Source: an uncultured bacterium
GTDB taxonomy: Bacteria; Armatimonadota; JACIXR01
Direction of reading: 5' to 3'
DNA: 64,000 nucleotides
Assembly (NCBI GenBank): GCA_938041455.1
Contig: CALITO010000023.1
Coordinates: 370-64,369 of the forward strand
The first letter of the stretch is position 1; every line of letters begins with the position of its first letter. Below the pieces are notes generated by a model. The model made no database searches and had not been told where the DNA came from. It saw only the letters and a program-made list of their open reading frames with translations. The translations under genes were made by a program, and so were the position numbers. Shown in pieces: positions 21,824 to 64,000 of the stretch.

Positions 21824-23611
21824 TTATTTTATCCTGAAAAGATACACCCGAGCCTTGCTGTAGACGAGCTCTATGTAAGGGCAGGCGGAAGGGTTTACCA
21901 AAAGCTTGTCAAGGGGATTATCGCTCAAGGGATTTCCTGGAGCAAATTCCTGATTGATGATTATATGGGTGAATCCCATTCGCTTATAACTCTCCACAAG
22001 TTCTTTAACCGTCCTGAAGCGCTTGTAAGGTATCAAAGTGTGATGACCTGGGTCAGCCCACATATATTCCCTACCCAAATAGAAACCTCTGGGTTCACCT
22101 AAAAGAGCGATTTTACTATCCAAGGGAAGATATTGGTTAACGAATTGAAAAACCTTATAGGATGGGAAAAACTTCCCTATGAATTCTTCCCTATCCTCCC
22201 TCCCCAAGGCTACTCCAAAAGTAGGATACATTATCAATCCAAATATAAGGAGATGGAGGAGATAGGAAATGCTCAAAATCAAGCCGAAAAGGATGTTGAA
22301 GGGCTTCTTCCATAACCTGTTCAATCCCTTTGCCAAAGGCAAGGGTAAAACAACAAGGATTGGGAGAAGATAACGGATATTCTGGCTTAAAAAGAACCAT
22401 TGTATCCCACTTAGGGCGATAAAAAGTAGGGAAATGGGCTCTTTCAAAAGCAAAGGACAAAAAGCGAGGAAAACCGGACCAATCATCGCGAAGAAGCGAT
22501 TAGCCCCAGGGTCGAAGAATTTCTCCGGATGGAAAGTAAGGTTCCAGGGTAGAAGGAGAAAAGAAAGGATATCCCTTCCTGTCCCAATTGAGAGTTGGGC
22601 TTCTCTGTAAGCGGTGGCTGCCTCGCTGCTCCAAAGCCTTCCCCCGAAGATATTGTAGAGAAAAGGGTAGACGGGATTGCCGGTGTATATATAGCTCTTC
22701 AAATACCAAGGAAGAGCAAGTAAAAAGGCTGGAAAAAGAAGAGTGCCCACCCTTCGCCAAATCGTCCTCCCATCCCATCGCCAGACCAGTTTGCCTTCTC
22801 GGTAAAAGGGAAAAAGGATCAAAAGGGAGAGGAGAAAAGAAAGTGCGAGGTGTTTCGTCCCCAGAGCAAAGCCTATAGCTAACCCCGTGAGGAGGGTTTC
22901 CTCTTTCAAAAAAGCAAGGAAGGCGAGTAAAACATAGAACGAGAAGGCAAGGTCATTGTAGGCAATCGTGCTTTCCCAGGAAAAAAGCACCATTTGGGTA
23001 AGGAAAAGCAAAGCCAACACCCCCCCTACCCTGCTGTTTTTCCTGAGTTGGTTATAAAGAAGAGCCATTATTAGGAGAGCAAAGAGGAGGTGGAAAAGTT
23101 TGCAGGCGTCCACCATACCGATTATCAAGGGAATGGTGTAAAGCATCTCCATAAGGAAGGGAAAGTTAGAGTGATGGATGAATTGCACCCAATAGATTCT
23201 ATGGGCGGAGATGTAGAGTTTGGGGACCGCAAGATGATAAGCAAGTCCATCCCAATCTATGGGGGGCGAAAGAGCGGCAAGGAAGACGAGGGAAAACCAA
23301 GGGAGGAAAAGAAGCAGTTCCCAAGGGAAACTTTTCAAATTTATCTTTTGCATTCTGGGAAACCGCGCCCTCCAAGGAAAGAAAGAGGTCAAAACGAGGA
23401 GGAGAGAAATAATCGCCGATTTGTATAGTAGCCCCAATATACCAAGAAAGAAGACGAGATAGGCGAGAACTCCTAAGCCTATCCCTATAGCGAATACAGT
23501 TTTCTCTACCTTGTCCAAGGTGGGGAGACGCATCCTCCTAAGGATGCGTCTCCCCACACCATAAGAGATCCCCACTCCATAAGCTACAAATAATGTATCA
23601 ATTAGGTGCAT
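21824..23611 (-). CDS. polytopic GT-C (ArnT/PMT-like) membrane glycosyltransferase
   Basis: Many TM helices; DWDGLAYHL, SNFP, PWY...TGNPVYPF, RYLLP. Confidence 0.75.
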   Translation of the reverse strand: MHLIDTLFVAYGVGISYGVGRRILRRMRLPTLDKVEKTVFAIGIGLGVLAYLVFFLGILGLLYKSAIISLLLVLTSFFPWRARFPRMQKINLKSFPWELLLFLPWFSLVFLAALSPPIDWDGLAYHLAVPKLYISAHRIYWVQFIHHSNFPFLMEMLYTIPLIIGMVDACKLFHLLFALLIMALLYNQLRKNSRVGGVLALLFLTQMVLFSWESTIAYNDLAFSFYVLLAFLAFLKEETLLTGLAIGFALGTKHLALSFLLSLLILFPFYREGKLVWRWDGRTIWRRVGTLLFPAFLLALPWYLKSYIYTGNPVYPFLYNIFGGRLWSSEAATAYREAQLSIGTGRDILSFLLLPWNLTFHPEKFFDPGANRFFAMIGPVFLAFCPLLLKEPISLLFIALSGIQWFFLSQNIRYLLPILVVLPLPLAKGLNRLWKKPFNILFGLILSISYLLHLLIFGLIMYPTFGVALGREDREEFIGKFFPSYKVFQFVNQYLPLDSKIALLGEPRGFYLGREYMWADPGHHTLIPYKRFRTVKELVESYKRMGFTHIIINQEFAPGNPLSDNPLDKLLVNPSACPYIELVYSKARVYLFRIK

Positions 23612-35101: not shown

Positions 35102-35130
35102 TTGGCATGATTTGGTTGTTTTTATATAAT
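35102..35130 (+). promoter_or_regulatory. sigma70-type promoter of the pil locus
   Basis: TTGGCA-N17-TATAAT then SD AAGGAGGT. Confidence 0.6.
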
Positions 35131-35150: not shown

Positions 35151-36377
35151 ATGCCCAGAAATGGGGGCCCGGTCAGTGGTATAATGCTTGGTATTGACTT
35201 CGGCTCCAAATTTATAAAGGTAGCGGAAGTAAGCGCCAGAGGTGGAGAGTTGGAGTTACTTTCCGCGGGTATCTTACCTACACCCAGTGGCTTGTTATCA
35301 GGGGATGCCATAGTAGATCCACAAGGGGCGGCCGAGACTATCAAAACTTTACTTCAACAGGTTGGTGTCCATACTAATAAGGTTGTTATAACAGTAAAGG
35401 GGCAAACCTCCGTTGTTATAAGGATAATAGAGGTGCCAAAGATGAGGGAGGACGAGCTCGCCGATGCAATGAGATGGGAAATAGAAAGGCATGTTCCTTT
35501 TGCCAGCACGGGAGCGGTAGCGATGGACTATGCCCCACTTCAACCAATGTCTACAATCCCTGAAGAGGAGACAGGTGAAGTTCTATTAGCTGTGGCGGAG
35601 GAAGGATTGATAAAGGCGGTAGTGGATTCCTTGGAGTTAGCGGGCTTGGAAGCCGTTGTCATTGACATAGAACCCCTTGCTTTGGGACGTTGTTTTGTGG
35701 GTAAGGATCCCGAATTAAAAGGGAGAACTGTCGCTATTCTCCAAATGGGGGCAAGGTCTTCCGAGCTCACGGTAATAGGATATGATAATCCCCGTTTGAC
35801 CCGAACCCTGAATATAGGAGGTAATAACCTAACATCCGCTATCGGGAACGCTCTAAGCGTTTCAGATGAGGAGGCGGAGAAAATCAAGAAACGATATGCT
35901 GCCATACTCGTGGAAAAGCTCGGCGTTCCTACCCCCACCCTTCCCCCCGCCGAGGAAGAGGCTCCCTTCTTTCCCTTCAGCCCTACCTATGAGCTACCTC
36001 CTGAGGAAACGCCCCCTTCCAGGGTAGAAACCCCTCCGGAAAGAGAGCTTCCAGCCGATGAGAAGGAAATAAGGGAAGAAGTCTTTGAGGCTATGTTGCC
36101 GATCTTAGGAGATATAGTCAATGAACTAAGGCGTTCTTTTGAGTATGTTCGGAGCAGAGCAGAGGAGTTGCAGATAGAGAGACTTATAGTGAGTGGAGGA
36201 GGAGCCCTTATAAGGGACATAGATAAGTTCTTCTCTCGGGAGTTAGGTGTCCCCACAGAGGTGGGCGACCCCCTCAAGGGTATGAAGTTGAACCCCCGCC
36301 TTTCCCCCGCTTACTTAAGGGAGATTTCGCCCCTTCTCTCCGTCGCCATTGGCTCAGCCATTCGGGATTTTGTATAA
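35151..36377 (+). CDS. pilM: type IV pilus assembly protein PilM
   Basis: LGIDFGS..IKVAEV, WEIERHVPF, DIEPLAL, NIGG, SGGGA, LSVAIGSAIR; Pro/Glu-rich insertion. Confidence 0.92.
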   Translation: MPRNGGPVSGIMLGIDFGSKFIKVAEVSARGGELELLSAGILPTPSGLLSGDAIVDPQGAAETIKTLLQQVGVHTNKVVITVKGQTSVVIRIIEVPKMREDELADAMRWEIERHVPFASTGAVAMDYAPLQPMSTIPEEETGEVLLAVAEEGLIKAVVDSLELAGLEAVVIDIEPLALGRCFVGKDPELKGRTVAILQMGARSSELTVIGYDNPRLTRTLNIGGNNLTSAIGNALSVSDEEAEKIKKRYAAILVEKLGVPTPTLPPAEEEAPFFPFSPTYELPPEETPPSRVETPPERELPADEKEIREEVFEAMLPILGDIVNELRRSFEYVRSRAEELQIERLIVSGGGALIRDIDKFFSRELGVPTEVGDPLKGMKLNPRLSPAYLREISPLLSVAIGSAIRDFV

Positions 36378-36398: not shown

Positions 36399-37400
36399 AT
36401 GATAAAAATAAATTTACTGCCGGCGTTTGTCAGGGAAAGAAAGGTTGTTAGGAAGTTATTGATGTTTATTTTGATCCTCTTGGGTTTGGAACTCTTAGGT
36501 TTTGCCTACTGGTATAACAGAGTTTCCACCCAAGGCTACGATATAGGGCAACAACTTGATGTTGCTAAAGCTCAAGCCCAGGAAGTGCAAAGGCTTCAAA
36601 GCGAGGCAGATAGCATCAGAGCAGAAATAGAGCCCATAAAGGCTAAAACGAAATTCATAGAGGATACGAAGAATTTCCCTGTTAAGCTCGCAGACCTCTT
36701 GGATTCCATCCGCCGCTATACCTACGGGAAGGTCATTTATACCTCTCTCCAGTTAGGCGGTGGTGCTGGAGGGATGATGGGACCCATGATGGGGGGGATG
36801 CCTGGACCTATGATGGGGACTGGTATGCCCGGGATGGGAGCAATGGGAGGTGGGGGAACCCAGCAAATAACTACGGTAAGCATCCAAGGGTATACCGACT
36901 CCGTGGAGAACGTCGCCCGTTACCTCCAAAATCTTCTTCGCTGTCCCCAAATAGCGGATGTGCAAATCAGCGGTATACCAGGTTATGGGACCTCCGCTGG
37001 CGCTACCCCCGGGATGGGAGGAATGCCGGGTATGATGGGTAAAGCCCCGATGATGGGAAGCGGAATGCCAGGTATGATGGGAGGAATGCCAGGAATGATG
37101 CCGGGTGCAGGAATGGGAACTACCCAAACCCCGGGACAAGTCAGTATAAGTGTGATTTGCTATTTAATGGAGCCACTTACTCCCCCCTCTCCACCCACAG
37201 CTGCTCCGCCCACAGCTGCAGGTATGCCTGGTATGGGCATGCCTGGTATGGGTATGCCTGGTATGGGCATGCCTGGAGCAGTAGGTCCCCTTCCTCAGGC
37301 TGCCGCCCCCACAACCGGAGCGCCTCCCGAAGGAAGAGGACGCTTACCAGGTCTTGAAGAGAGAAGACGAATGGAACAAGAGGTAATGGAGGGATTATGA
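36399..37400 (+). CDS. pilN: PilN-like protein with Gly/Met/Pro-rich insertions
   Basis: MIKINLLP (PilM-binding INLLP motif), TM helix, coiled coil, SIQGY..S...VARYLQNL core; follows pilM. Confidence 0.85.
   Translation: MIKINLLPAFVRERKVVRKLLMFILILLGLELLGFAYWYNRVSTQGYDIGQQLDVAKAQAQEVQRLQSEADSIRAEIEPIKAKTKFIEDTKNFPVKLADLLDSIRRYTYGKVIYTSLQLGGGAGGMMGPMMGGMPGPMMGTGMPGMGAMGGGGTQQITTVSIQGYTDSVENVARYLQNLLRCPQIADVQISGIPGYGTSAGATPGMGGMPGMMGKAPMMGSGMPGMMGGMPGMMPGAGMGTTQTPGQVSISVICYLMEPLTPPSPPTAAPPTAAGMPGMGMPGMGMPGMGMPGAVGPLPQAAAPTTGAPPEGRGRLPGLEERRRMEQEVMEGL
37221..37277 (+). repeat. 15-bp tandem repeat encoding (GMPGM) about four times
   Basis: ggtatgcctggtatg / ggcatgcctggtatg alternating. Confidence 0.9.
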
Positions 37401-38212
37401 TGATAACGAGACTGGAACGCTTAACTAAGCAACAGGCTTTATTAGTTGGTTTAGTAGCGATTATCATAATTGCGGTAGCCATGTTTTTCCTCCTTGTCCG
37501 ACCCCGGCAGAAAACCCTCTCCGCCCTCCAGAAAGAGCTACAACAGACCCAGCAAATTGTCGACCAAAGGGCACAAGCCGAAGAAAACTTAAAAAGGGCT
37601 AAGGAGGAGAAAGTCAAGGAAGAAGCAAAGCTAGCATATTACGAGAAAACCAAGATGATACCCATAGACTTAAAGGACAGAATGAAGGCTATGTTTGCCC
37701 TGTGGACCGAGCACAATAAAGTGTTGGGTAAGAAAGTAGAGGATTTCTTCAAAAATTCCGGGGTCATTTTGCTAAACCCAGTTCAAGTATCTCCTCCTCC
37801 CACTGACCCCTCCGCTATCCCCTCAGACATCTACACAATAAGCCTTGGCAATTATCAAGTAATGGCTCCTTTCCCCGCTTTGCTCGATTTCCTTAGGAAA
37901 AAGATGCCCAATTTCCCCCGTGTTGCTCTTCTACCTAGCATAAGCATAAATGGTCCTAGCCCTGTGACCGCTTCCTTTAACCTTACTCTCTACTATTTCC
38001 CAAAAGGAGGGGAAGCGGCCGCTCCCCCCGCGGGAGCACCTGCCGCAGCCGGAATGCCGGGGATGGGTGGGATGCCGGGAATGCCTATGGGAAGTATGCC
38101 CGGGATGATGAAGGGACCGATGGGTGGAGGAATGCCTATGGTAGGTAATATGCCTGCAGGAACTCCTACTCCTATGGGAGCCAATATGCCTATGGGTGGT
38201 GGGGCAAGATAA
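37397..38212 (+). CDS. PilO-like protein with Gly/Met/Pro tail
   Basis: TM helix, coiled coil, FPALLDFL...FPRV PilO/GspM-like core; follows pilN. Confidence 0.7.
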   Translation: MMITRLERLTKQQALLVGLVAIIIIAVAMFFLLVRPRQKTLSALQKELQQTQQIVDQRAQAEENLKRAKEEKVKEEAKLAYYEKTKMIPIDLKDRMKAMFALWTEHNKVLGKKVEDFFKNSGVILLNPVQVSPPPTDPSAIPSDIYTISLGNYQVMAPFPALLDFLRKKMPNFPRVALLPSISINGPSPVTASFNLTLYYFPKGGEAAAPPAGAPAAAGMPGMGGMPGMPMGSMPGMMKGPMGGGMPMVGNMPAGTPTPMGANMPMGGGAR

Positions 38213-38229: not shown

Positions 38230-39027
38230 TTGGCGATGCAAAGGTTAAGGATAGACCTAAGTGAGCGGCGAACTCAACTGGTTATTGGGGGCGCTATAGC
38301 GGTTGTAATAATAGTTATCGTCCTTTTCCTCGTTATAGGGAGAAGAGGACAACCCCCCTCCGCTCCTATGATGGGTAATATGCCAGCGGGCGCTAATATA
38401 CCAGCAGGGATGCCAGGTATGGGTATGATGGGTATGGGAATGATGGGTAATATGCCAGCGGGCGCTAATATGCCAGCAGGGATGCCAGGTATGGGTATGA
38501 TGGGTATGGGTATGATGGGTATGATGGGAGGTGCTACAGCTGGCACCCCGACTGGGGAAACGCAACCTACTATTACTCGAAAGGTCCCAGCCGGTCCCCC
38601 AAAGGAACCATCCCGGGCTGACCCCTTCCTCGTGCCCGTTCCCCAAGAGATGAGAGAAGCCCTTATGAGAGTAGACATTGTACCCCCACCTCGTATGACT
38701 CCTCTCAAAGCGCCTATGCCTACAATGGTTTATACGCAGGTGCCCTTCACAAGGGTAGCGGGAGTAGCCATATCCCGGGGAGCGTATGCTCTCTTAGAAG
38801 GAGCTAATGGTAGAACCTATATTGTGAGCCCAGGCGATGTGTTGGAAGGCTTTACCGTGGAGAGGATAGAGCCAACAGGAGTCGTTCTGAGAAGTGAGGA
38901 GGGCGAGGAGAGCACGGTGGAATTGAAAGGCGCCGAACGAGCTGGAGTGACGCCCGGGATGGGCGGTATGCCTGCACCGAGTATGCCCGGGATGGGCGGT
39001 ATGCCGGTAAGCGGAGCCCCGCGGTAG
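38230..39027 (+). CDS. PilP/GspC-like protein with Gly/Met/Pro repeats
   Basis: TM anchor; RADPF motif; YALLE...YIVSPGDVLEGFTVERIEPTGVVL beta domain typical of PilP/GspC HR. Confidence 0.7.
   Translation: MAMQRLRIDLSERRTQLVIGGAIAVVIIVIVLFLVIGRRGQPPSAPMMGNMPAGANIPAGMPGMGMMGMGMMGNMPAGANMPAGMPGMGMMGMGMMGMMGGATAGTPTGETQPTITRKVPAGPPKEPSRADPFLVPVPQEMREALMRVDIVPPPRMTPLKAPMPTMVYTQVPFTRVAGVAISRGAYALLEGANGRTYIVSPGDVLEGFTVERIEPTGVVLRSEEGEESTVELKGAERAGVTPGMGGMPAPSMPGMGGMPVSGAPR
38368..38511 (+). repeat. 72-bp tandem duplication encoding MMGNMPAGAN(I/M)PAGMPGMGMMGMG twice
   Basis: Units 38368-38439 and 38440-38511 are near-identical. Confidence 0.92.
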
Positions 39028-39100: not shown

Positions 39101-39122
39101 TTAAAAGGAGGTGATATAAAAG

Positions 39123-39926
39123 ATGCGCCTTGTTAAGTTAGCGATGGTTATGGTTTTGTTCCTGTATGTTCTTCCTTACCTACTTGCTCAACAGGAAATA
39201 TCAGTAACACCGGACAATAGAGTCACTCTACAACTTAGGGATGTTCCCCGCCTTACTGCTTTGGAAACTCTTTTGAGAGCGGCAGGCAGAAACTTCACCT
39301 TTGACCCCTCAGCTCGTCGAGCTAACGACTTCGTATCCATTAGTCTCCAAAATGTAGATTTTGACCAGGCCCTCAAAGCTCTTTTAGGTGATTATCTCAC
39401 CGCGGAACCCATAGAAGGTGGCTATACGATAAAGATGCAGACCGTTACACCAGGCTTTACACAATGGGGAACCCAGCAATTTCCCTGGGGAGGCGTCCCC
39501 ACTACCCCAACAACTACTACCACCACTACCGGTCTTCCCACCAACATCATCTACGACAAAATAAACCTCCAATATGCTTCTATCTATGATATCCTTATGG
39601 TCATAGGCGGCGGCTATGGTGGCTATGGCGGATACGGCGGCTATGGTGGCTATGGCGGATACGGCGGATACGGTGGTTATGGCGGATACGGTGGCTATGG
39701 CGGTTACGGCGGATACGGTGGCTATGGCGGATACGGTGGCTATGGCGGTTACGGCGGTAGAGGCGGCGGCTACACTGGCGGTAGAGGCGGCGGCTACACT
39801 GGCGGTAGAGGCGGCGGCTACACTGGCGGTAGAGGCGGCGGCTACACCGGCGGTAGAGGCGGCGGCTACACCGGCGGTAGAGGCGGCGGCTACACCGGCG
39901 GTAGAGGCGGCTACACCGGATACTGA
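39123..39926 (+). CDS. exported secretin-N0/STN-like protein with (GGY)16-(GGRGGGYT)6 tail and no secretin barrel
   Basis: Signal peptide; VTLQLRDV...VSISLQNVDFDQALKALL (N0/STN-like); Thr-rich linker; KINLQYASIYDIL (start of an N-domain); about 105-aa G/Y/R tail. Confidence 0.8.
   Translation: MRLVKLAMVMVLFLYVLPYLLAQQEISVTPDNRVTLQLRDVPRLTALETLLRAAGRNFTFDPSARRANDFVSISLQNVDFDQALKALLGDYLTAEPIEGGYTIKMQTVTPGFTQWGTQQFPWGGVPTTPTTTTTTTGLPTNIIYDKINLQYASIYDILMVIGGGYGGYGGYGGYGGYGGYGGYGGYGGYGGYGGYGGYGGYGGYGGYGGYGGRGGGYTGGRGGGYTGGRGGGYTGGRGGGYTGGRGGGYTGGRGGGYTGGRGGYTGY
39609..39752 (+). repeat. 16 x GGY coding repeat (9-bp unit, synonymous variation)
   Basis: Counted by codon; Gly codons ggc/ggt/gga and Tyr codons tat/tac are mixed. 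Confidence 0.95.
39753..39923 (+). repeat. 6 x 24-bp repeat encoding GGRGGGYT plus a partial seventh copy
   Basis: ggcggtagaggcggcggctacac(t/c): three act copies then three acc copies. Confidence 0.95.
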
Positions 39927-40012
39927 TTTTTCTCCTTGTCTAAATTTTGAGATACGGTATCATCAAAAAGAGAGCGGTAATTCCTCTTAAGTTGAAGGGA
40001 GGTTGGTTTATT

Positions 40013-41770
40013 ATGTATTCCCTTATGAAGAGGGGCGTCTTTGCAGTAGTTGTAGCGCTCCCGTTGTTTGTTTTTTGGGCATCGGGGTCGTGGGTGAAAG
40101 CAGAGGCAGCATCAGACGATGTAGAACAGAATCTGGTAACCTTGCAGGTGCAGGATGCTGACCTATGCGAGGTAGTTAGCATGCTGATGAAGGAGAGCAG
40201 AGCGAACATCATCATCGCCGATAGAGACAAGATAAAAAAGACCATCACCGCTAATCTCTACGATGTCCCTTTGGAAGAAGCGCTGGAGAAAATCGTGAAA
40301 GCAAATGGGCTCTATTGGTATAAAGAGGGCGATGTCTATGTAATAAGCGCCGAGCCACGAGCAGAGCCAACGGAAAAATTATCCTCTCCCCCTCTTGAGA
40401 AGACTACCCCTACAACTGAGGGTGTTTCTTCCACCTCCTCTGAAACTCTAATCGCATCTCCTCAACCCACCCGCTTAGAGACAGAGAAATTTGTCCTGAA
40501 GTATGCTCATCCTCGAGATATTGCAGCTTTGTTTGGAGCTTCTATCCCCCGCCGCCCCTTCTCCTATTACCAAGGAGCGGAAAGACAAGGTAGGGGACCT
40601 TTAGCACCTTCTTTCGGACGCTCCAGGGAAGAAAGTGCTAATTCCCCCATTCAGGGAGGATTTGGTCAGTTCAGGGGAGGTGTGGGTGGCTTCAGAGGGG
40701 GTGTTGGTGGGATGGGCTTCCCCGGAGGTGTAGGTGGCTTTGCCGGGGGCATGGGTGGTTTTCCTGGAGGTGTGGGTGGCTTTCCCGGAGGGATGGGAGC
40801 GTATCCCGGCGGGGTAGGGGCCTTCCCGGGCGGAGTTACTGGCTATGCGGGGGTGGGAGGTGTTGGAGCAGGTTACTATGGCTATGGCCTAATGGCGTTT
40901 GTTCCCGGCGTCTACAACATAATCCCTTATGAGCCTGATAACGCCCTCATAGTTATAGGAACTCAGGAGGGGATAGAACAGTTTAGAAAACTTCTCCAAC
41001 TGTTGGATGTCCCTGTTCGCCAGGTGGAGATATCCGCGGAGTTCGTGGAGATAAGCACGGATGTAACGAAGAGCTTGGGAATAGATTGGATGCTGACTAA
41101 TAACGAGACTACGATAGTGGGACAAGGGATGTCCCCGGGAACTGGTGCTACTTTAGTTATAGGTTATACCACGCCCCGGATAAGGGTTCAACTGGGCGCT
41201 CTAATGAGAGAGGGTAAAGCGAGATTGGTTAACGCCCCTCGGGTGAGTACCTATAACAATTATCCAGCTTATATCTCCGTCACGCAGGACATCCCCTACT
41301 GGTATCCAGAGACAACCCTCACACAATTTGGGGGAACCCAGACTACCTGGGTGCCTGATATGATAAGTGTTGGAACATATCTCACAGTTACTCCCACAAT
41401 AAACGGGGATGGTTCCATTACCTGTTATATCACCCCCAGTGTATCAGAAGTTGTTGGTTTTGTGACTGGTCCTACCGGGTCGCTGCCCCAGACGAGCACG
41501 AGGGATATGGACACAATAGCGAGGGTTATGAACGGAGAGACACTGGTGATAGGCGGTTTGATACGCAAAAACATCAGCACCCAGAAGGTCAAAGTCCCCT
41601 TCCTCTCCGAATTACCGATCATTGGGGGACTCTTCAAAGGAACAACTCAAACGACTACGGAGAGCGAACTGCTGATATTTCTTACCCCCCGTATAATAGA
41701 GGAGCCCGGTAGGGTCACGGGAACGGTTGTTGTGCCCCCTACAACTGGAGGGGGAACTGGGGGTCCATAA
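40013..41770 (+). CDS. outer-membrane secretin (PilQ/GspD family) with Gly-rich insertion
   Basis: Signal peptide, N0 domain, LDVPVRQVEISAEFVE, LGIDW, PRVSTYNN, GETLVIGGL, KVPFLSELPIIGGLFK, ELLIFLTPRII. Confidence 0.93.
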   Translation: MYSLMKRGVFAVVVALPLFVFWASGSWVKAEAASDDVEQNLVTLQVQDADLCEVVSMLMKESRANIIIADRDKIKKTITANLYDVPLEEALEKIVKANGLYWYKEGDVYVISAEPRAEPTEKLSSPPLEKTTPTTEGVSSTSSETLIASPQPTRLETEKFVLKYAHPRDIAALFGASIPRRPFSYYQGAERQGRGPLAPSFGRSREESANSPIQGGFGQFRGGVGGFRGGVGGMGFPGGVGGFAGGMGGFPGGVGGFPGGMGAYPGGVGAFPGGVTGYAGVGGVGAGYYGYGLMAFVPGVYNIIPYEPDNALIVIGTQEGIEQFRKLLQLLDVPVRQVEISAEFVEISTDVTKSLGIDWMLTNNETTIVGQGMSPGTGATLVIGYTTPRIRVQLGALMREGKARLVNAPRVSTYNNYPAYISVTQDIPYWYPETTLTQFGGTQTTWVPDMISVGTYLTVTPTINGDGSITCYITPSVSEVVGFVTGPTGSLPQTSTRDMDTIARVMNGETLVIGGLIRKNISTQKVKVPFLSELPIIGGLFKGTTQTTTESELLIFLTPRIIEEPGRVTGTVVVPPTTGGGTGGP

Positions 41771-41861: not shown

Positions 41862-42923
41862 TCACATTTTTTCTATCTCCCCCAGAAGTTTCTCTACTGC
41901 TTCCGAGAAGGAGACGGTCTTAATGGGTTTCCCCCGAAGGAATAAAACAGCCGAGCTCTTCCCAAAAGCAAGACCTATATCGGCGTCCTTCGCTTCTCCC
42001 GGACCATTGACCTCACATCCCATCACGGCTACCTTTAGGGGACGAGGGGGGAGCTTTTCCAATTCGCTCTTAACTTCCCTCACTAACTCTATCAGGGGAA
42101 CAGCGCAGCGAGCGCACATAGGGCAGGATACTATAATGAACCCCCGCTCCCTTATATTGAGGCTCTGCAATATCTCCCAAGCTACCTCCACTTCTTTCAC
42201 TCCCTCGGCGGTCAGAGATACCCTAATAGTATCACCCAATCCCTTACCCAAAAGAATTCCCAATCCTACCGCTGACCTTATCGCCCCCTCGGGCATAGGT
42301 CCCGCTTCAGTTATACCAATATGAAGGGGGTAATCCCTCATTTGGGAAAAATACTCGTAGGCTTCCACGGTGGTTTGTATGTCAAAAGCCTTTAGGGAAA
42401 CAACGATGTCCTCAAATTCAAGCTCCTCAAGTAGAGAGATTTCCCTCATAGCTACTTCCACCATCGCCTCAGCTGGAGAGCGAGGATATTTCTCCAACAC
42501 ATCCTTGGGGAAAGAGCCGGCGTTAACACCGATGCGAATTGGGATCCCTTTCCCTTTTGCCATCTTCACTATTTCCTTTACACCTTCTCTACTCCCGATT
42601 GTGCCTGGGTTAATTCTTATCTTATCCACGCCCTTCTCCATAGCCTTTATCGCAAGGCGCCAATGAAAATGGATATCTGCAACGAGAGGAATAGAGATCC
42701 TCTCCTTAATATAGGGGATAGCCTCTATAGATGGCTCATCGGGGACCGCTATTCTCACTATCTCGCAACCCGCCCCTTCCAATCGCTTTATCTCCTCTAC
42801 AACTTTCTGCCCATCCCTGGTAGGGGAACGAGTCATAGACTGGACCCTAATGGGATTCTCCCCACCTATCTTTATATTGCCTATCTTCACCTCCTTCGTC
42901 CGTCTCTTTCTTAGAGAGTTCAT
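41862..42923 (-). CDS. ispG: HMBPP synthase
   Basis: VQSMT, PLVADIHF, IRINPG, IRIGVNAGS, YPLHIGITEAG, GDTIRVSL, SCPMCARC, MGCEVNGPGE. Confidence 0.98.
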   Translation of the reverse strand: MNSLRKRRTKEVKIGNIKIGGENPIRVQSMTRSPTRDGQKVVEEIKRLEGAGCEIVRIAVPDEPSIEAIPYIKERISIPLVADIHFHWRLAIKAMEKGVDKIRINPGTIGSREGVKEIVKMAKGKGIPIRIGVNAGSFPKDVLEKYPRSPAEAMVEVAMREISLLEELEFEDIVVSLKAFDIQTTVEAYEYFSQMRDYPLHIGITEAGPMPEGAIRSAVGLGILLGKGLGDTIRVSLTAEGVKEVEVAWEILQSLNIRERGFIIVSCPMCARCAVPLIELVREVKSELEKLPPRPLKVAVMGCEVNGPGEAKDADIGLAFGKSSAVLFLRGKPIKTVSFSEAVEKLLGEIEKM

Positions 42924-43849
42924 TTTAACGATAACCCTATCTTCTCTAAAACCTCCCTAGCCACATTGCCCATAAGGGCGACGCTATACTCTTTTATTCG
43001 GAGCAAAACCACTTCTTGCTCATAATGGCCAAATAAAGGAGGATGCCTCCAGGGATGGATTGTTTCCATTATTGTTATAGGGTTTAAGCCATCGGTTAGG
43101 TGAATTATCGCTGCCCTCTGTCTTCCTGCGAATAGGGGGCGGATGTGGAGAAGGGTGTAGCCCGGGGGAAGATAAGAAGGAAGGAGGGGAAGGAAGCCGA
43201 GGAGACGCTTGAGCTCCTCAGGAGTGTAATCCCTGGGTTTAACGAGTGGTCTGGGAACCTCAAATTCCTTTTCCTCAAAGGTGGGGTTGAGCTGGAGAGA
43301 TAGGAGGGCGACGGAAGAAATTAATTTTCCTTGAGGGGAATAGCGCTCCGTCTTAAGACGGATGCCTGTTTCCTTATCCACCCAAACCTTGAGGTAACCT
43401 CCCTTCACATAAGTTGGTTCTATCAGGAAGATTTTCGCCGTTCGCCCTATGATTTGCTCCTCTCCTCTCAAGTTCACCTTGGCGCTTTTGAAAAGGAGCT
43501 CCTTATGAATATCCTCCATACTCTCCCCTGGAGCAAAGTAAAGGAAATGTGTCTTCTTACCCTTTGGGGGTATGATAGCAACACTTTCCCTCTCCCATAC
43601 CATAACATAGCCTGTGAAAGTTGGAGGGGAAAGGAATTCAAGACGCGTTTTATCCGGTTGAGCTTTCTTTAACACCACTTCGAAGCGGAGAACCCCAACT
43701 TTTGTGTAGAGCGAATAAACCTGCTTCCCCTGCCATTCCATTTTCTTCTCTTTTTCTAACGCTTGACGGAGTTGGGATAAAGGGTTCTGGGATAGCGCTA
43801 AAGTAGTAAAGAGTAAAAGAACGAATAGCCAAAATTTACCTTGTCTCAT
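42920..43849 (-). CDS. RseB/MucB-like (LolA-fold) sigma-E regulatory protein
   Basis: Signal peptide; PDKTRLEFLSP, WVDKETGIRLKTE, PSYLPPGY, TDGL; follows the anti-sigma gene. Confidence 0.8.
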   Translation of the reverse strand: MRQGKFWLFVLLLFTTLALSQNPLSQLRQALEKEKKMEWQGKQVYSLYTKVGVLRFEVVLKKAQPDKTRLEFLSPPTFTGYVMVWERESVAIIPPKGKKTHFLYFAPGESMEDIHKELLFKSAKVNLRGEEQIIGRTAKIFLIEPTYVKGGYLKVWVDKETGIRLKTERYSPQGKLISSVALLSLQLNPTFEEKEFEVPRPLVKPRDYTPEELKRLLGFLPLLPSYLPPGYTLLHIRPLFAGRQRAAIIHLTDGLNPITIMETIHPWRHPPLFGHYEQEVVLLRIKEYSVALMGNVAREVLEKIGLSLK

Positions 43850-44298
43850 TCTTCACCGGAAATCAAGAGGATTTTAACCACTGAATCGCCTGAAATCAGA
43901 GGGTTCTGCAATGTATAGATGAGATGTTCCCTCCTATAGGTATCAAAGAGTGCTTCCTCACTTATCCTACCTGCATGGATGTAGAGGAATATAAAAATAA
44001 GCAAGGCAAGGGGTAAAAGAAAGAGCAGGGCTCTTTTAGCGAGACGGAGTGGAAGAAAGGGGCGGAGAGTTTTCCTTTCTCTCTGGTGTATTTTTCTCAA
44101 GACTAGCGAATTAAAGGACGGGCTTAATTGAGGCGTTGGGAGGGAAGCGATTAGTTTTTTCAGCTTTTGGTTTTCCCTATAAAACCGCATACAAGAGGGA
44201 CAGCAAGCCAGGTGAGCGAGCAAGGCTTCCCTCGCCTCTTCTGTTATCTCCTCATCTAATAGTTCCTGGGAGAGAATCCTCGCCTTTTTACAATTCAT
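43846..44298 (-). CDS. zinc-binding (zf-HC2) anti-sigma factor
   Basis: MNC...HLACCPSC (HxxxCxxC); one TM helix. Confidence 0.9.
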   Translation of the reverse strand: MNCKKARILSQELLDEEITEEAREALLAHLACCPSCMRFYRENQKLKKLIASLPTPQLSPSFNSLVLRKIHQRERKTLRPFLPLRLAKRALLFLLPLALLIFIFLYIHAGRISEEALFDTYRREHLIYTLQNPLISGDSVVKILLISGEE

Positions 44299-44866
44299 CT
44301 TTCTCATCCTCCAGAATATCGCGGAGTTTTTCCCGCAACATCTTGCGAGCATTAAACAGACGAGATTTAACCGTCCCCAAAGAACAGCGAAGCAGGCGGG
44401 CTATCTCTTCGTAGCTAAAGCCTTGTAGATCCCGTAGGGTTATCGCCTCCCTTAGTTCAATAGGTAAAGAGGTAATCTCCTTCTCTAACCGTTTCCGCAA
44501 CTCCTCTCGCTCCAAATTACCTTCCACTTCGGCATCCCCTGCGTCCGCGAAGAATTCTCGGTCACCTTCCAAAGAATCCAAAGAAATTGTATGTTTTCTT
44601 TTAGCTAACCGTTCGTTATCTCTTATCAAATTAAGAGCTATCTTGAAAAGCCAACTTTTGAATAAGCGGTTATCCTTGAGTTGGTATAGTGAGAGGTAAG
44701 CTCGCACAAAACTCTCCTGTGTTATATCCTCCGCATCCTCTTTTTGACGAAGGTTATGATAAACGAACCTAAACAAAGAATCTCTGTAGCGTTGGACCAG
44801 GATATCAAACGCCTCCTTCGCACCATTCTTACTGCGCAGAACTAAAACATCATCCGGCTCTTCCAC
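44288..44866 (-). CDS. ECF RNA polymerase sigma factor (RpoE/SigW type)
   Basis: DAEDITQESF, FKSWLFKIALN, GFSYEEIA...GTVKSRLFNAR; GTG start 44866. Confidence 0.95.
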   Translation of the reverse strand: MEEPDDVLVLRSKNGAKEAFDILVQRYRDSLFRFVYHNLRQKEDAEDITQESFVRAYLSLYQLKDNRLFKSWLFKIALNLIRDNERLAKRKHTISLDSLEGDREFFADAGDAEVEGNLEREELRKRLEKEITSLPIELREAITLRDLQGFSYEEIARLLRCSLGTVKSRLFNARKMLREKLRDILEDEKDEL

Positions 44867-44885
44867 GCAGGAACCTTCATTATTA

Positions 44886-44913
44886 TTGACGATAAAATCT
44901 GAAGATTTGTTCA
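44886..44913 (-). promoter_or_regulatory. ECF-type autoregulatory promoter
   Basis: Minus strand TGAAC-N17-CGTCAA immediately upstream of the sigma gene. Confidence 0.6.
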
Positions 44914-45021
44914 ATGTGTATTTAATTTTACAACAAATTGCCATTTGAAGCAAAAAGTTCTCGTTGTGGAATGATGTCGGAAGTTTGCTCGGGAAGGTTA
45001 TTTTGTATTAAAATAAATAAA

Positions 45022-61557: not shown

Positions 61558-64000
61558 TCAGTGATGTCCAATTATAACTTCTATTAAGTCCCCATTTTTT
61601 AAGATGGAGCGGGGGATAGGATGAGTGATTGCCTTCCCATTCAGCCTCACCTCTTTGACCTTGTTCCCAAATCCTCTATATTGGATATGGAGAATCACAT
61701 CTCCGCACCTGATGTTCTCAAAGGAGATGTCGGCAGCCTCTCTGGGAATAGCGGGTTGAAAGTAAAGCTTTTCTTCGTCCATCCTCAAACCTCCAATCCC
61801 CTCTATTATTCCCACTGTTATGAGGATGCCATCCTCCATTAAGCCCTGGTCGCTCCCCACCGGTTTGTCATCGGCGCTGAAAGCATTACTCCCTTCATAC
61901 ATCGGTAAGGGACGTGTATAGGGAAGACCGTGCCCACTTGCTAAATTCCCTCGCAAAACCCTTTTGGCGAAAGCTTCTACCTTTTTCCAAGCATCTTCCG
62001 GCGATAATCTTGCTCTTATGAACCAGTCAAACCCACCTTGCCAGAACTGGGTCTGACCATTCTGTGTTCCGGGTGCTCTTTGAAAATTGTTCCAAATCCC
62101 CGCATAGAAGGCTTCCTTGTTCCCGTCCATTGTGTTTATTGCAGGTATGCCAGAGGGCTTTCCCGTTCTTCCATCCTTCCATGAGTAAGCATTGGGGTCG
62201 GAATCCAACCAGGAAATAACTTTTTCAACTTTCTCCTTGGGCAAAAGTCCGAGGTAATTTGCCAAAAGGGGAATATCGGTGAAGCCGAAGTCGATCTCCT
62301 TACCATTGACATCTATCCAACTGAGAAACCTTCCACCTCTCAATTTCCTTCCCTGGTTATCCCTTAGATCTTCCTCTCGCCAATAAAGGGAAAATAGGGA
62401 TTCCTTTGCCCTTTCCCCTACCCTTTTGTATTCATCTGCTTTTTCCTGCTCATCTAAGAAATAGGCAAGGCGTGCCAGAGCGAAAGCGGATGCTGAGTAA
62501 TAGACTTGAAGTAGGGCATAACGATGCCCAATGCACCAAGCATCCCAGTATGTGGATGGGCGTCCTTGCTGGGGAAGCCCTGTATATGGTTGGGGTAATA
62601 CCAAGATCTCCCTTTCATCAGCCAGGGAACGATAGAAATAAAAAGCCTCCTCCAACTTGGGAAATATCTTCCCGATGAACTTCATATCTTTTGAAAGAAT
62701 CGCGTATTCCAGGACGGATAAGATGAATTGGGCGTTTGTTTCAAAGATATAACCTGTTTGATTCCAACGCCACATCCATCCGCCATCACCAAGCCTCGCT
62801 ATAGGCATTATACCTCTGGGGAGAATGTCTCCCATCTCGTCCCTCGTAGTTTCCCCATCTGCGACGGCTAAGAGATAAATCTCCAAATTATTCCGCATCG
62901 TCTCCAAGTTGAAGCGGGGATTGTATTTACCCGCTAATGTCCAGAAGAAGGGGATCATCCCCTCGGGAGCCAGCGGACCCCCGAAGCAGTGTTCAAGGTA
63001 AAACATCTCAAGGGCTCTCTCAACCTCAGGGGCATTGGGCAAGTAGATTCGGAATGTTCCCTGGGAAGGAGGTCTTATATAAGGAAGCAGGCGGATGACA
63101 GCTGATAACCTGTATTTCCTCTCCCTTTCAAGTGATATTGGTCTGCAGTTATGTATGCGCCAGTCAAAGGTGCAAGAAGAAACGATTATTTTTGTTATGC
63201 CCATAGTTCTATCAAAGAGGGGATTTGGTAGATGGACGAAGAAAGGGGTATCGCTTCCTGCGTCTCTTATTTCCAAAGTAAGGAAACGGAAGAGGGGTTG
63301 AGAGCCCTCATCCGCACAGGCTATCAAGTCGTTCCCGATGGGACGATAGCAAGGCTGAAGGGCGTAGATGCTCATCTTGTAATTCTCAAGCATCCTTCTG
63401 TGGAAATATCCTCCCCCAGAGTTGTAAAATCTCTCCCAAGAACCCGCAGGGAAGTCAAGATGCCACCCTATATAAGGGAGGTATATATCCCTGAAACTTT
63501 GGAACTCCGCCCTCAGAATAATTGCATCCTTATCAAGGCGAAAATCCAAGGATGCCTTTACAAGGGCTTCTCCCTCGGGAGACACCAAATGGAGATTCGG
63601 AAAACGAAGAGAATAGTGAAATACCTTAACGGGTTCTACATTCCTGGGTTCAAGGACAAGGTTAGAGGGCTCATCTGGATACACGCTTCTCTGCCAATTG
63701 GAAGGACCCCCAAAATATATCCTGCTGTTCTTCCCAAAAATAAGACTCCCACTCCATTTTCCTTTTCCCCTTGTATCTACTTGAAGTGACACAATTTCCC
63801 CCTTCCTGAGGTCTATTCCCAATCTATAATATCCATTTGAGATGTGTTTTATCTCCCTACTCTCCTCCCTCTTTACCTTGGGAATTTTGAGCCTATCCCA
63901 GTTTCCCCTGAGCAATTCCCTTGCTTTTCTCACCGCTTCCTCCTCGCTTCCTCTTCCTATGAGGAAGCGAGCCCTGAACTTACCGTAGCTAAAGAAACCG
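61558..64000 (-). CDS. six-hairpin (alpha/alpha)6 glycoside hydrolase-like protein, 5' end outside window
   Basis: Frame stays open to the window edge; ETNAQFIL..EY, STYWD, RFLSWID, C-terminal YRGFG..V..VRLNG domain. Confidence 0.65.
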   Translation of the reverse strand, partial: GFFSYGKFRARFLIGRGSEEEAVRKARELLRGNWDRLKIPKVKREESREIKHISNGYYRLGIDLRKGEIVSLQVDTRGKGKWSGSLIFGKNSRIYFGGPSNWQRSVYPDEPSNLVLEPRNVEPVKVFHYSLRFPNLHLVSPEGEALVKASLDFRLDKDAIILRAEFQSFRDIYLPYIGWHLDFPAGSWERFYNSGGGYFHRRMLENYKMSIYALQPCYRPIGNDLIACADEGSQPLFRFLTLEIRDAGSDTPFFVHLPNPLFDRTMGITKIIVSSCTFDWRIHNCRPISLERERKYRLSAVIRLLPYIRPPSQGTFRIYLPNAPEVERALEMFYLEHCFGGPLAPEGMIPFFWTLAGKYNPRFNLETMRNNLEIYLLAVADGETTRDEMGDILPRGIMPIARLGDGGWMWRWNQTGYIFETNAQFILSVLEYAILSKDMKFIGKIFPKLEEAFYFYRSLADEREILVLPQPYTGLPQQGRPSTYWDAWCIGHRYALLQVYYSASAFALARLAYFLDEQEKADEYKRVGERAKESLFSLYWREEDLRDNQGRKLRGGRFLSWIDVNGKEIDFGFTDIPLLANYLGLLPKEKVEKVISWLDSDPNAYSWKDGRTGKPSGIPAINTMDGNKEAFYAGIWNNFQRAPGTQNGQTQFWQGGFDWFIRARLSPEDAWKKVEAFAKRVLRGNLASGHGLPYTRPLPMYEGSNAFSADDKPVGSDQGLMEDGILITVGIIEGIGGLRMDEEKLYFQPAIPREAADISFENIRCGDVILHIQYRGFGNKVKEVRLNGKAITHPIPRSILKNGDLIEVIIGHH

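Follow-up and report, generated by a model that had tools for sequence, protein, structure and literature searches.

A secretin channel is built from roughly a dozen subunit copies or more. Such channels pose a standing risk of leakage in the outer membrane, and their sealing and alignment are under active study. Secretin partners with an N0-like domain and plugs of the channel lumen are already known, both having been described in 2025-2026 only (PMC13392014 and PMC12531336). BfpG is an N0-like domain protein that binds the BfpB secretin in a 17:17 arrangement around the N3 ring, and pilus biogenesis depends on it (PMC12531336). SlkA and SlkB plug the lumen of PilQ in P. aeruginosa until the inner-membrane complex docks (PMC13392014). 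In InvG, the secretin of a type III secretion system (T3SS), helix 1 and strand 2 of the N3 domain are separated by a variable disordered insertion, to which the periplasmic constriction of the closed channel is attributed (PMC6155069). Here we analyze a gene found in a stretch of 64,000 nucleotides from an uncultured member of the phylum Armatimonadota (contig CALITO010000023.1; this whole stretch is called the window). The gene is a short open reading frame (ORF) directly upstream of the pilus secretin gene pilQ, and its product combines a PilQ-like N-terminal part with a glycine-rich tail.

Judged from sequence comparison, the short gene arose long ago as a paralogue of the N-terminal part of PilQ (PilQ-N) and is under purifying selection. 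Throughout the phylum it has a fixed place between pilP and pilQ, which makes an accessory role in the secretin machine the natural reading, and the sequence data make it likely that the short protein is a component or partner of this pilus machine. The proposal of an accessory secretin subunit, made in a first-pass annotation of the window, is thereby strengthened; that annotation conjectured that the subunit might co-assemble with the secretin through N-domain complementation.

Like BfpG, TcpQ, CofC and LngC of type IVb systems, the short protein is a small N0-type protein, predicted to be exported, that is encoded together with a secretin. It differs from BfpG and TcpQ in being encoded in a pilMNOPQ operon instead of a type IVb operon, and in being a recognizable paralogue of PilQ of the type IVa pilus (T4aP) type, with E 1e-17 to solved PilQ chains. 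Unlike BfpG as described, it adds half an N3 domain and a Gly-rich tail of 36-121 residues. With the N-terminal region of T4aP PilQ it shares the order N0, linker and N3, can be aligned into the first strand-helix of N3, and has a Gly-rich stretch whose start coincides with the site of the variable N3 loop in PilQ. In contrast to T4aP PilQ, however, it lacks the rest of N3 and the barrel and cannot form a channel. SlkA and SlkB offer a functional precedent for a plug, likened by description and not by sequence; their genes (PA5122/PA5123) lie outside the pilMNOPQ operon (PMC13392014), whereas the short gene lies inside it. The openly searchable full-text literature, which leaves subscription-only papers outside its reach, contained no description of a PilQ-derived family with N0, half N3 and a Gly-rich tail, and none of Gly-rich disordered segments on all periplasmic PilNOPQ parts.

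Architecture of the short protein

The following features were assigned to the short gene, using an AlphaFold2 (AF2) model built on a 31-sequence alignment (pLDDT, predicted local distance difference test) and comparisons with the Protein Data Bank (PDB):

39105..39114 (+), Shine-Dalgarno (SD) sequence AAGGAGGTGA of the short gene, read directly; it ends 8 nt from ATG 39123
39123..39926 (+), short PilQ-N paralogue, 267 aa, ATG start, stop codon included; ORF translation
39123..39188 (+), signal-peptide-like N-terminus, residues 1-22, ...LLA/QQ, no lipobox Cys; sequence reading
39210..39437 (+), N0/STN domain, residues ~30-105; AF2 pLDDT 92-96, Foldseek, family profile against PDB
39438..39551 (+), Thr/Pro-rich linker, residues 106-143; AF2 pLDDT 56-60, without secondary structure
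39552..39608 (+), N3 remnant, first strand and helix YDKINLQYASIYDILMVIG, residues 144-162; family alignment, profile against PDB
39609..39752 (+), (GGY)16, residues 163-210; exact in translation, AF2 pLDDT <50
39753..39896 (+), (GGRGGGYT)6, residues 211-258; exact in translation, AF2 pLDDT <50

This order of signal peptide, N0/STN domain, Thr-rich linker, first N3 strand-helix and (GGY)16-(GGRGGGYT)6 tail is exactly what the first-pass annotation had described. The AF2 model places a helix at residues 2-20, and the family alignment contains an A-x-A-Q consensus at the presumed cleavage point; the signal peptide would be cleaved after residue 22. The N-terminus MRLVKLAMVMVLFLYVLPYLLAQQ contains no lipobox Cys of the pilotin type (PilF/Tgl, PulS and MxiM types).

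The top PDB match of the N0 model in Foldseek was 4ar0, the N0 domain of N. meningitidis PilQ (rmsd 1.7 Å over 74 columns, E 1.4e-3), and the next matches were other secretin N0 domains. Against the PDB, the family profile likewise found the N0 domain of 4ar0 (E 1.7e-17) and solved T4aP PilQ chains (~1e-17). Its positions 32-171 align with residues 289-421 of P. aeruginosa PilQ (6ve2) and its positions 29-162 with residues 153-280 of V. cholerae PilQ (6w6m), so that these alignments span N0 into the start of N3 and end at about position 171. The window ORF alone matched Pfam STN (PF07660) with E 7e-4 and 19.8 bits, which is under the cut-off of 28.4 bits; within the family, STN was found in 29 of 31 members at E ≤ 1e-3 and GspD_N0 in 8 of 31, and Pfam matches other than these two were absent from all 31. 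BLASTP aligned the short protein with the adjacent secretin over 214 columns at 20% identity (E 8e-4), from the signal peptide to KINLQYASIYDIL in one and KFVLKYAHPRDIA in the other.

The strand-helix block of N3 is the second most conserved block in the family alignment, with K146 present in at least 90% of the sequences. In the AF2 monomer it is represented by the helix at 154-162 alone (pLDDT ~60). Neither the short ORF nor any of the 31 family members matched Secretin_N (PF03958), and a complete beta-alpha-beta-beta-alpha domain was not encountered; the barrel domain Secretin (PF00263) likewise had no match in either set. The protein thus lacks strands 2-3 and helix 2 of N3 as well as the entire secretin barrel. 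According to sequence and model, the short protein is an N0 domain, a linker and the first N3 strand-helix, with nothing further that folds.

The adjacent secretin and its N3 insertion

Two features of the neighboring gene are needed for the comparison:

40013..41770 (+), pilQ secretin, 585 aa from ATG 40013, with its own SD GGGAGG and no AMIN domain; Pfam Secretin E 2.3e-43
40553..40885 (+), Gly-rich disordered PilQ insertion, residues 181-291 (111 residues); AF2 pLDDT <50

The secretin scored 201.8 bits against the NCBIfam family IV_pilus_PilQ. Pfam detected STN (1.4e-7) and matched Secretin_N at residues 300-337 over profile positions 32-69 only, which is the C-terminal half of that domain. 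In an AF2 model built on a 20-sequence alignment, N0 occupies residues 41-112 and is followed by a strand (156-161) and a helix (167-173) with pLDDT 82-86; beyond the disordered insertion come strands at 300-316 and a helix at 318-331, which form the rest of N3 (pLDDT 87-91), and then the barrel. Going by these pLDDT values and the Pfam half-match, the strand-helix at 156-173 probably packs with residues 300-331 as one N3 domain. According to the model and the half-match to Secretin_N, the Gly-rich insertion separates helix 1 of N3 from strand 2, at the same N3 site as the InvG loop (PMC6155069). The InvG loop, however, has ~50 residues, is not Gly-rich and is part of the secretin itself, whereas at the locus studied here a separate protein carries a tail as well.

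The first-pass annotation had also stated that the short ORF ends where the secretin has its Gly-rich insertion, which proved correct (PilQ residues 181-291). The insertion site and the profile alignment together indicate that the tail of the short protein begins at a point homologous to the N3 loop of PilQ; the corresponding loop of InvG, a well-studied secretin, hangs into the vestibule.

A split secretin, in which the short protein would supply the N-terminal half in trans, was considered and rejected, because PilQ has its own confidently folded N0 domain (41-112) and strand-helix (156-173). It is also contradicted by locus L042, where three secretin ORFs have long N-terminal regions. That the pair is not simply a split gene, as had been noted at first, was borne out by the relatives: the short ORF and a full secretin are separate in all 22 complete loci described below, none of which encodes the region as one continuous full-length secretin, and the secretins of these loci carry their own N-terminal region matching the family profile. 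In the window, each gene has its own SD, as had likewise been observed (AAGGAGGTGA for the short gene, GGGAGG for the secretin).

Distribution and gene order of the family

A word-index homologue search with residues 1-165 returned 637 candidates, none of which scored; as HMMER finds 93 homologues, this null result reflects a limit of sensitivity. The HMMER search covered 1.84 billion representatives and yielded these 93 proteins at E ≤ 1e-3, of which ~25 have 200-270 residues, align over the whole N-terminal part and share the same architecture. In a set of 41 related genomes, 26 matched in a single-sequence search and 38 matched the 31-row family profile at E ≤ 1e-12. The same profile matched 199 of 201 genomes of the phylum at E ≤ 1e-5, the weakest of these matches being secretin N-termini and other STN proteins. 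A protein-cluster atlas lists an STN-bearing cluster as commonest in Armatimonadota. Public annotations name relatives "secretin and TonB N-terminal domain-containing protein" (P0036) or "HofQ" (P0031); labels such as "STN domain-containing protein" and "HofQ" conceal a distinct family.

For synteny we retained 40 of 102 profile matches, namely those in open frames of ≤360 aa that reached model position ~175. The 62 excluded matches either were N-termini of secretins in longer frames or covered STN only; at least 2 of the STN-only ones adjoin secretins upstream and could be divergent members. The surroundings of each member were inspected over as much as 5 kb per side, and ORFs were labeled with profiles grown from the window genes. 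In the window, these genes precede the short gene on the same strand with tight spacing:

35151..36377 (+), pilM, first operon gene; Pfam PilM_2 E 4.9e-48
36399..37400 (+), pilN-like, with Gly/Met/Pro low-complexity segments; Pfam PilN E 2.2e-4, below cut-off
37397..38212 (+), pilO-like, with a Gly/Met/Pro C-terminal tail; weak T2SSM/GspM matches
38230..39027 (+), pilP/GspC-like, with transmembrane (TM) helix, Gly/Met segment, HR-type domain and Gly/Met tail; NCBIfam and position

The 40 members were found in the following arrangements:

22/40, pilM-N-O-P homologues, short gene, secretin
5/40, pilMNOP, short gene, contig end
1/40, short gene ~1 kb upstream of three tandem secretin ORFs
8/40, no pil gene in the fetched stretch
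4/40, contig edge, no pil context

A survey for genes with an STN domain and a Gly-rich tail directly before a secretin, which the first-pass annotation had suggested, thus returned 22 complete cases with pilM-N-O-P upstream, and the operon arrangement is present in at least 27 of the 41 genomes. Homologues of the pilN-like gene occupy the same place in 21 loci, the position of the pilO-like gene is conserved (jackhmmer E 2e-88 within the set of loci), and homologues of the pilP-like gene are conserved immediately upstream of the short gene; the window pilP-like product itself matched pilP_fam (E 2.4e-4) and GspC_delta (E 4e-3) of NCBIfam, both below cut-off. The labels of one locus (L032) give the gene order N-P-O. 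Intact short ORFs were present in 31 complete loci. A whole phylum keeps a sixth pilMNOPQ gene, which joins a predicted secretin docking domain to a long disordered tail and offers a genetically compact system for asking what a periplasmic disordered low-complexity protein does.

Contigs end inside or beside the short gene in 10 of the 40 members (including L029, L034, L041, L045, L048, L050, L051, L054 and L059). In the same-genus genome G002 (L064), which had no match, the contig ends 214 nt upstream of the secretin start, so that the absence of the short gene there is due to an assembly break. As repeat DNA breaks short-read assemblies, the short gene is often lost from, and under-counted in, metagenome-assembled genomes (MAGs).

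Several other arrangements were observed. In genome G011 (L042:4905-11578), a solo copy without pilMNOP upstream is followed ~1 kb downstream by three secretin-domain ORFs of 463, 626 and 549 aa. The metagenome proteins P0002, P0003, P0005, P0009 and P0015 contain 2-5 tandem STN/N0 domains, and P0002 has the strand-helix motif of the short protein together with a Pro/Gly-rich tail at its end; these proteins represent a related multi-N0 architecture. The top three neighbors of the N-terminal part in the feature space of the atlas were viral (Uroviricota) hypothetical clusters of 214-230 aa (scores 0.91-0.93). This could be a coincidence or reflect a very distant N0-like protein of phages; a tblastn search of 50,697 phage records yielded no relatives.

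Evolutionary history and selection

A maximum-likelihood tree was calculated from the sequences preceding the tail, for 21 operon copies, the 21 PilQ encoded beside them and 9 solo copies. Of the same-genus duplicates L030 and L031, only L030 was included, and the root is a midpoint root only. One side of a branch with 90/74 support holds all 30 short proteins and one long-branch PilQ (L060). Mapping the PilQ label on the tree needs 2 changes, of which the starred branches force 1 only. Solo copies pair with an operon copy of the same genome or family (L039/L049, L046/L056, L035/L025 and L047/L038). In the tree, the short proteins part from PilQ before the sampled families diverge, and the topology fits one old duplication of the 5' half of pilQ followed by local duplications. 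In L060 (G032), the short protein groups with its own PilQ (94/86) on long branches, which could be gene conversion between neighbors or a long-branch artefact.

The ratio of nonsynonymous to synonymous substitution rates (dN/dS) of the N-terminal part was 0.043 against a same-genus orthologue, with dS saturated. For the tail, dN was 0.00-0.03 and dS 1.2-2.4 among close relatives; repeats align in any register, and thus the low tail dN arises partly by construction. The high tail dS indicates that the repeat was not recently homogenized between species.

Composition of the tail

The last 105 residues of the short protein consist of 67 Gly, 24 Tyr, 7 Arg and 7 Thr and no other residue. Tandem Repeats Finder resolved the underlying DNA into two parts. 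The GGY part (39608-39758) has periods of 18, 27 and 45 with 81-94% matches and mixed codons, whereas the GGRGGGYT part (39752-39911) has a period of 24 with 6.7 copies and 98% matches. The near identity of the 24-nt units points to a recent expansion of the GGRGGGYT block.

All 22 operon copies have retained a tail, with lengths of 36-121 residues. Across the family it is composed of Gly with Phe, Tyr, Met or Ser (Asn too), with on average 12.7% aromatic and 4.0% charged residues, and many tails are of the Gly/Met or Gly/Ser type with few aromatics. Leaving Gly aside, Arg ranks among the top three tail residues in the four loci that belong to the window's own family, in L040 and in L060, but nowhere else; the other tails combine Gly with Phe, Met, Ser or Asn. 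The first-pass annotation had compared the tail with those of FUS and TAF15 and had suggested nucleic-acid binding. This did not hold for the family, since Arg-rich tails are confined to the loci just named and the RGG repeats on which the suggestion rests are a recent, lineage-restricted addition. Pfam detected no RNA recognition motif (RRM) or other nucleic-acid-binding domain in the short ORF or in the 31 family members.

The resemblance of the tails to FET proteins (FUS/EWS/TAF15) and FG nucleoporins is presumably one of composition only, given by the Gly/Tyr and RGG repeats of the window copy and by the charge-poor Gly/Phe/Ser/Asn repeats of many relatives. Unlike FET proteins, in which SYGQ and RGG regions flank an RRM and a zinc finger, the short protein contains no RRM, zinc finger or other FET domain, and it is bacterial and predicted to be periplasmic.

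The nearly uncharged tails mostly close with Arg and an aromatic residue within the final four positions (...RRW, ...RGF, ...FGR, ...RRY). Among 31 complete ORFs, the final residue is R in 10, F in 8, Y in 6, W in 3 and another residue in 4. This C-terminal motif is perhaps a docking or PDZ-type signal.

Glycine-rich segments across the pilus machine

Gly-rich segments, defined by 20-residue windows with ≥35% Gly, are not restricted to the short protein and PilQ but occur on all five periplasmic components of this machine, and on almost no other protein of the window genome. Among the loci, they were present in 21/21 PilN, 19/21 PilO, 21/22 PilP, 22/22 short proteins and 22/22 PilQ. The segments combine Gly with Met/Pro/Ala on PilN, PilO and PilP, and Gly with Gln/Phe/Pro/Leu/Ala in PilQ. 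In the window they lie at residues 109-164, 189-247 and 271-299 of PilN, 213-255 of PilO (its tail), and 54-111 and 238-262 of PilP.

Within the window genome, only 9 of 1736 non-overlapping ORFs of ≥100 aa have a Gly-rich segment of ≥40 aa. Five of these are the consecutive genes pilN, pilO, pilP, short gene and pilQ, and the short gene has the longest segment of all nine; the sixth is a second secretin. The latter belongs to a second pilM-N-O-P-Q cluster on another contig (C17, L078:6001-12696, -), which is without a short gene and has pilin-like genes upstream. This secretin (668 aa) contains an AMIN domain (E 2.7e-6) and a 64-residue Gly-rich segment at 355-419, and its PilN, PilO and PilP partners are compact (194, 219 and 180 aa) and not among the nine ORFs. 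The remaining three ORFs (C8:166893-167876, -; C44:36677-37696, +; C3:8237-9853, -; L075, L076 and L077) have segments of the Gly/Met/Pro or Gly/Pro/Ala type, and all three start like signal peptides. A PKD domain was found in one of them, and the other two have no Pfam match; all could be additional envelope proteins that carry disordered segments of this kind.

Proposed role and alternative explanations

We propose that the short protein may be a periplasmic sixth part of a type IVa-pilus-like PilMNOPQ machine across Armatimonadota. By analogy with BfpG and TcpQ, its N0 domain would dock it on the N-ring of PilP and PilQ. The tail would join the PilQ loops and the tails of PilN, PilO and PilP in a flexible, weakly self-adhesive mesh, located in or around the periplasmic vestibule, and this mesh would serve as a gasket or plug through which the pilus pushes. 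For this statement as a whole, from docking to mesh, sequence and analogy leave the scales about level.

Four observations pull away from it. None of the 25 PDB matches of the family profile at E ≤ 1 was a BfpG-type chain (inclusion of the BfpB-BfpG entry being unconfirmed), which makes the parallel with BfpG one of analogy and not of homology. Solo copies of the short gene away from pil genes account for 9 of the 40 members, including the one ~1 kb upstream of three secretin ORFs, and three more copies at contig edges have no pil genes upstream either; the short protein therefore need not be tied to one machine. The non-Gly composition of the tails and of the cognate PilQ insertions showed a mean r of 0.151, which was matched by 316 of 5000 shuffles, and with one locus per genus r was 0.141, matched by 846 of 5000; without significant co-variation, composition lends no support to a mesh in which like sticks to like. 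Finally, the lumen-facing position that the tails would have is argued from InvG only.

Alternatively, the N0 domain and half N3 may bind the PilQ N-rings from the outside, solely as a hoop or assembly factor that stabilizes or templates the oligomer, with the tail as a spacer or entropic bristle that has no role of its own. BfpG, with its signal peptide, N0-like domain, 17:17 association with the secretin and role in biogenesis, provides a precedent (PMC12531336), and both the drift of tail make-up between lineages (Tyr, Phe, Met, Ser, Asn) and the missing co-variation with the PilQ insertion speak for this reading. However, the tail is retained in every operon copy at 36-121 residues, its dN is near 0 at a dS of 1.2-2.4 (in part a product of how repeats align, as stated above), and it starts at the position that corresponds by homology to the PilQ loop. 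We consider a role as hoop or assembly factor alone rather unlikely.

The tail could alternatively tether the machine to the cell wall, a Gly/aromatic chain entangling with or binding peptidoglycan and so anchoring a secretin that is devoid of AMIN. None of 20 PilQ encoded beside a short gene matched the AMIN domain, and the AMIN-bearing second secretin of the window genome has no adjoining short gene. Yet the latter is one within-genome contrast, Pfam detected no known peptidoglycan-binding domain, and the many aromatic-poor tails of the Gly/Met or Gly/Ser type do not fit; such a tether appears improbable.

A more far-reaching variant of the proposed mesh is that the PilQ N3 loops, the tails of the short protein and those of PilN, PilO and PilP form a cohesive gel resembling that of FG nucleoporins, a low-complexity "selective phase". 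Were this true, the vestibule would be filled by a gel that keeps small molecules from passing the channel but opens for the pilus or DNA, as a bacterial analogue of the permeability barrier of the nuclear pore encoded in one operon. We regard this as a speculative idea with a small chance of being correct.

The first-pass annotation had also raised the idea that the RGG/GY tail binds periplasmic DNA or RNA and passes it to an uptake machinery. The 7 Arg in RGG-type repeats of the window tail would suit this function, the genome encodes ComEC (E 1.2e-45) and DprA (E 3.8e-84), and solved PilQ/HofQ relatives serve competence, going by the names of their PDB entries. ComEC and DprA, however, also match in 10 and 11 of 14 control genomes, respectively, and thus their presence does not discriminate. 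Furthermore, Arg-rich tails are limited to the window's family and two other loci against a mean charge content of 4.0%, the GGRGGGYT block with its 98% identical units is a recent expansion, and Pfam found no nucleic-acid-binding domain, which together render a role in uptake very unlikely.

A non-functional leftover of a partial pilQ duplication, which the truncated look and incomplete N3 might suggest, has a negligible chance of being correct given 31 intact ORFs, the presence throughout the phylum, a dN/dS of 0.04, the gene's own SD, and a tree in which the branching from PilQ predates the diversification of the families sampled.

Operon signals and genomic surroundings

A promoter-like site precedes pilM at 35102-35130 (11/12 match), with counts of promoter-like sites in the region at chance level. 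Between pilP and the short gene, no terminator-like site was found on the + strand, and counts of terminator-like sites were likewise at chance level; the single + strand match (39983-40002) covers the ribosome-binding site of pilQ itself.

The remaining genes of the window are housekeeping genes and glycoside hydrolases. Two large ORFs had no Pfam match at E ≤ 1e-5 (21827-23611, -, 595 aa; 61561-63933, -, 791 aa). About 1 kb downstream of pilQ, beyond ispG, a group of three genes begins on the opposite strand. It comprises a gene for an extracytoplasmic function (ECF) sigma factor (44291-44953, -), a small ORF (43849-44352, -) without a Pfam match, which resembles a zinc-finger anti-sigma factor with a TM helix, and a gene for a MucB/RseB-like protein (42923-43849, -). 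Together, the region 42923-44953 (-) looks like an envelope-stress module near the pilus operon.

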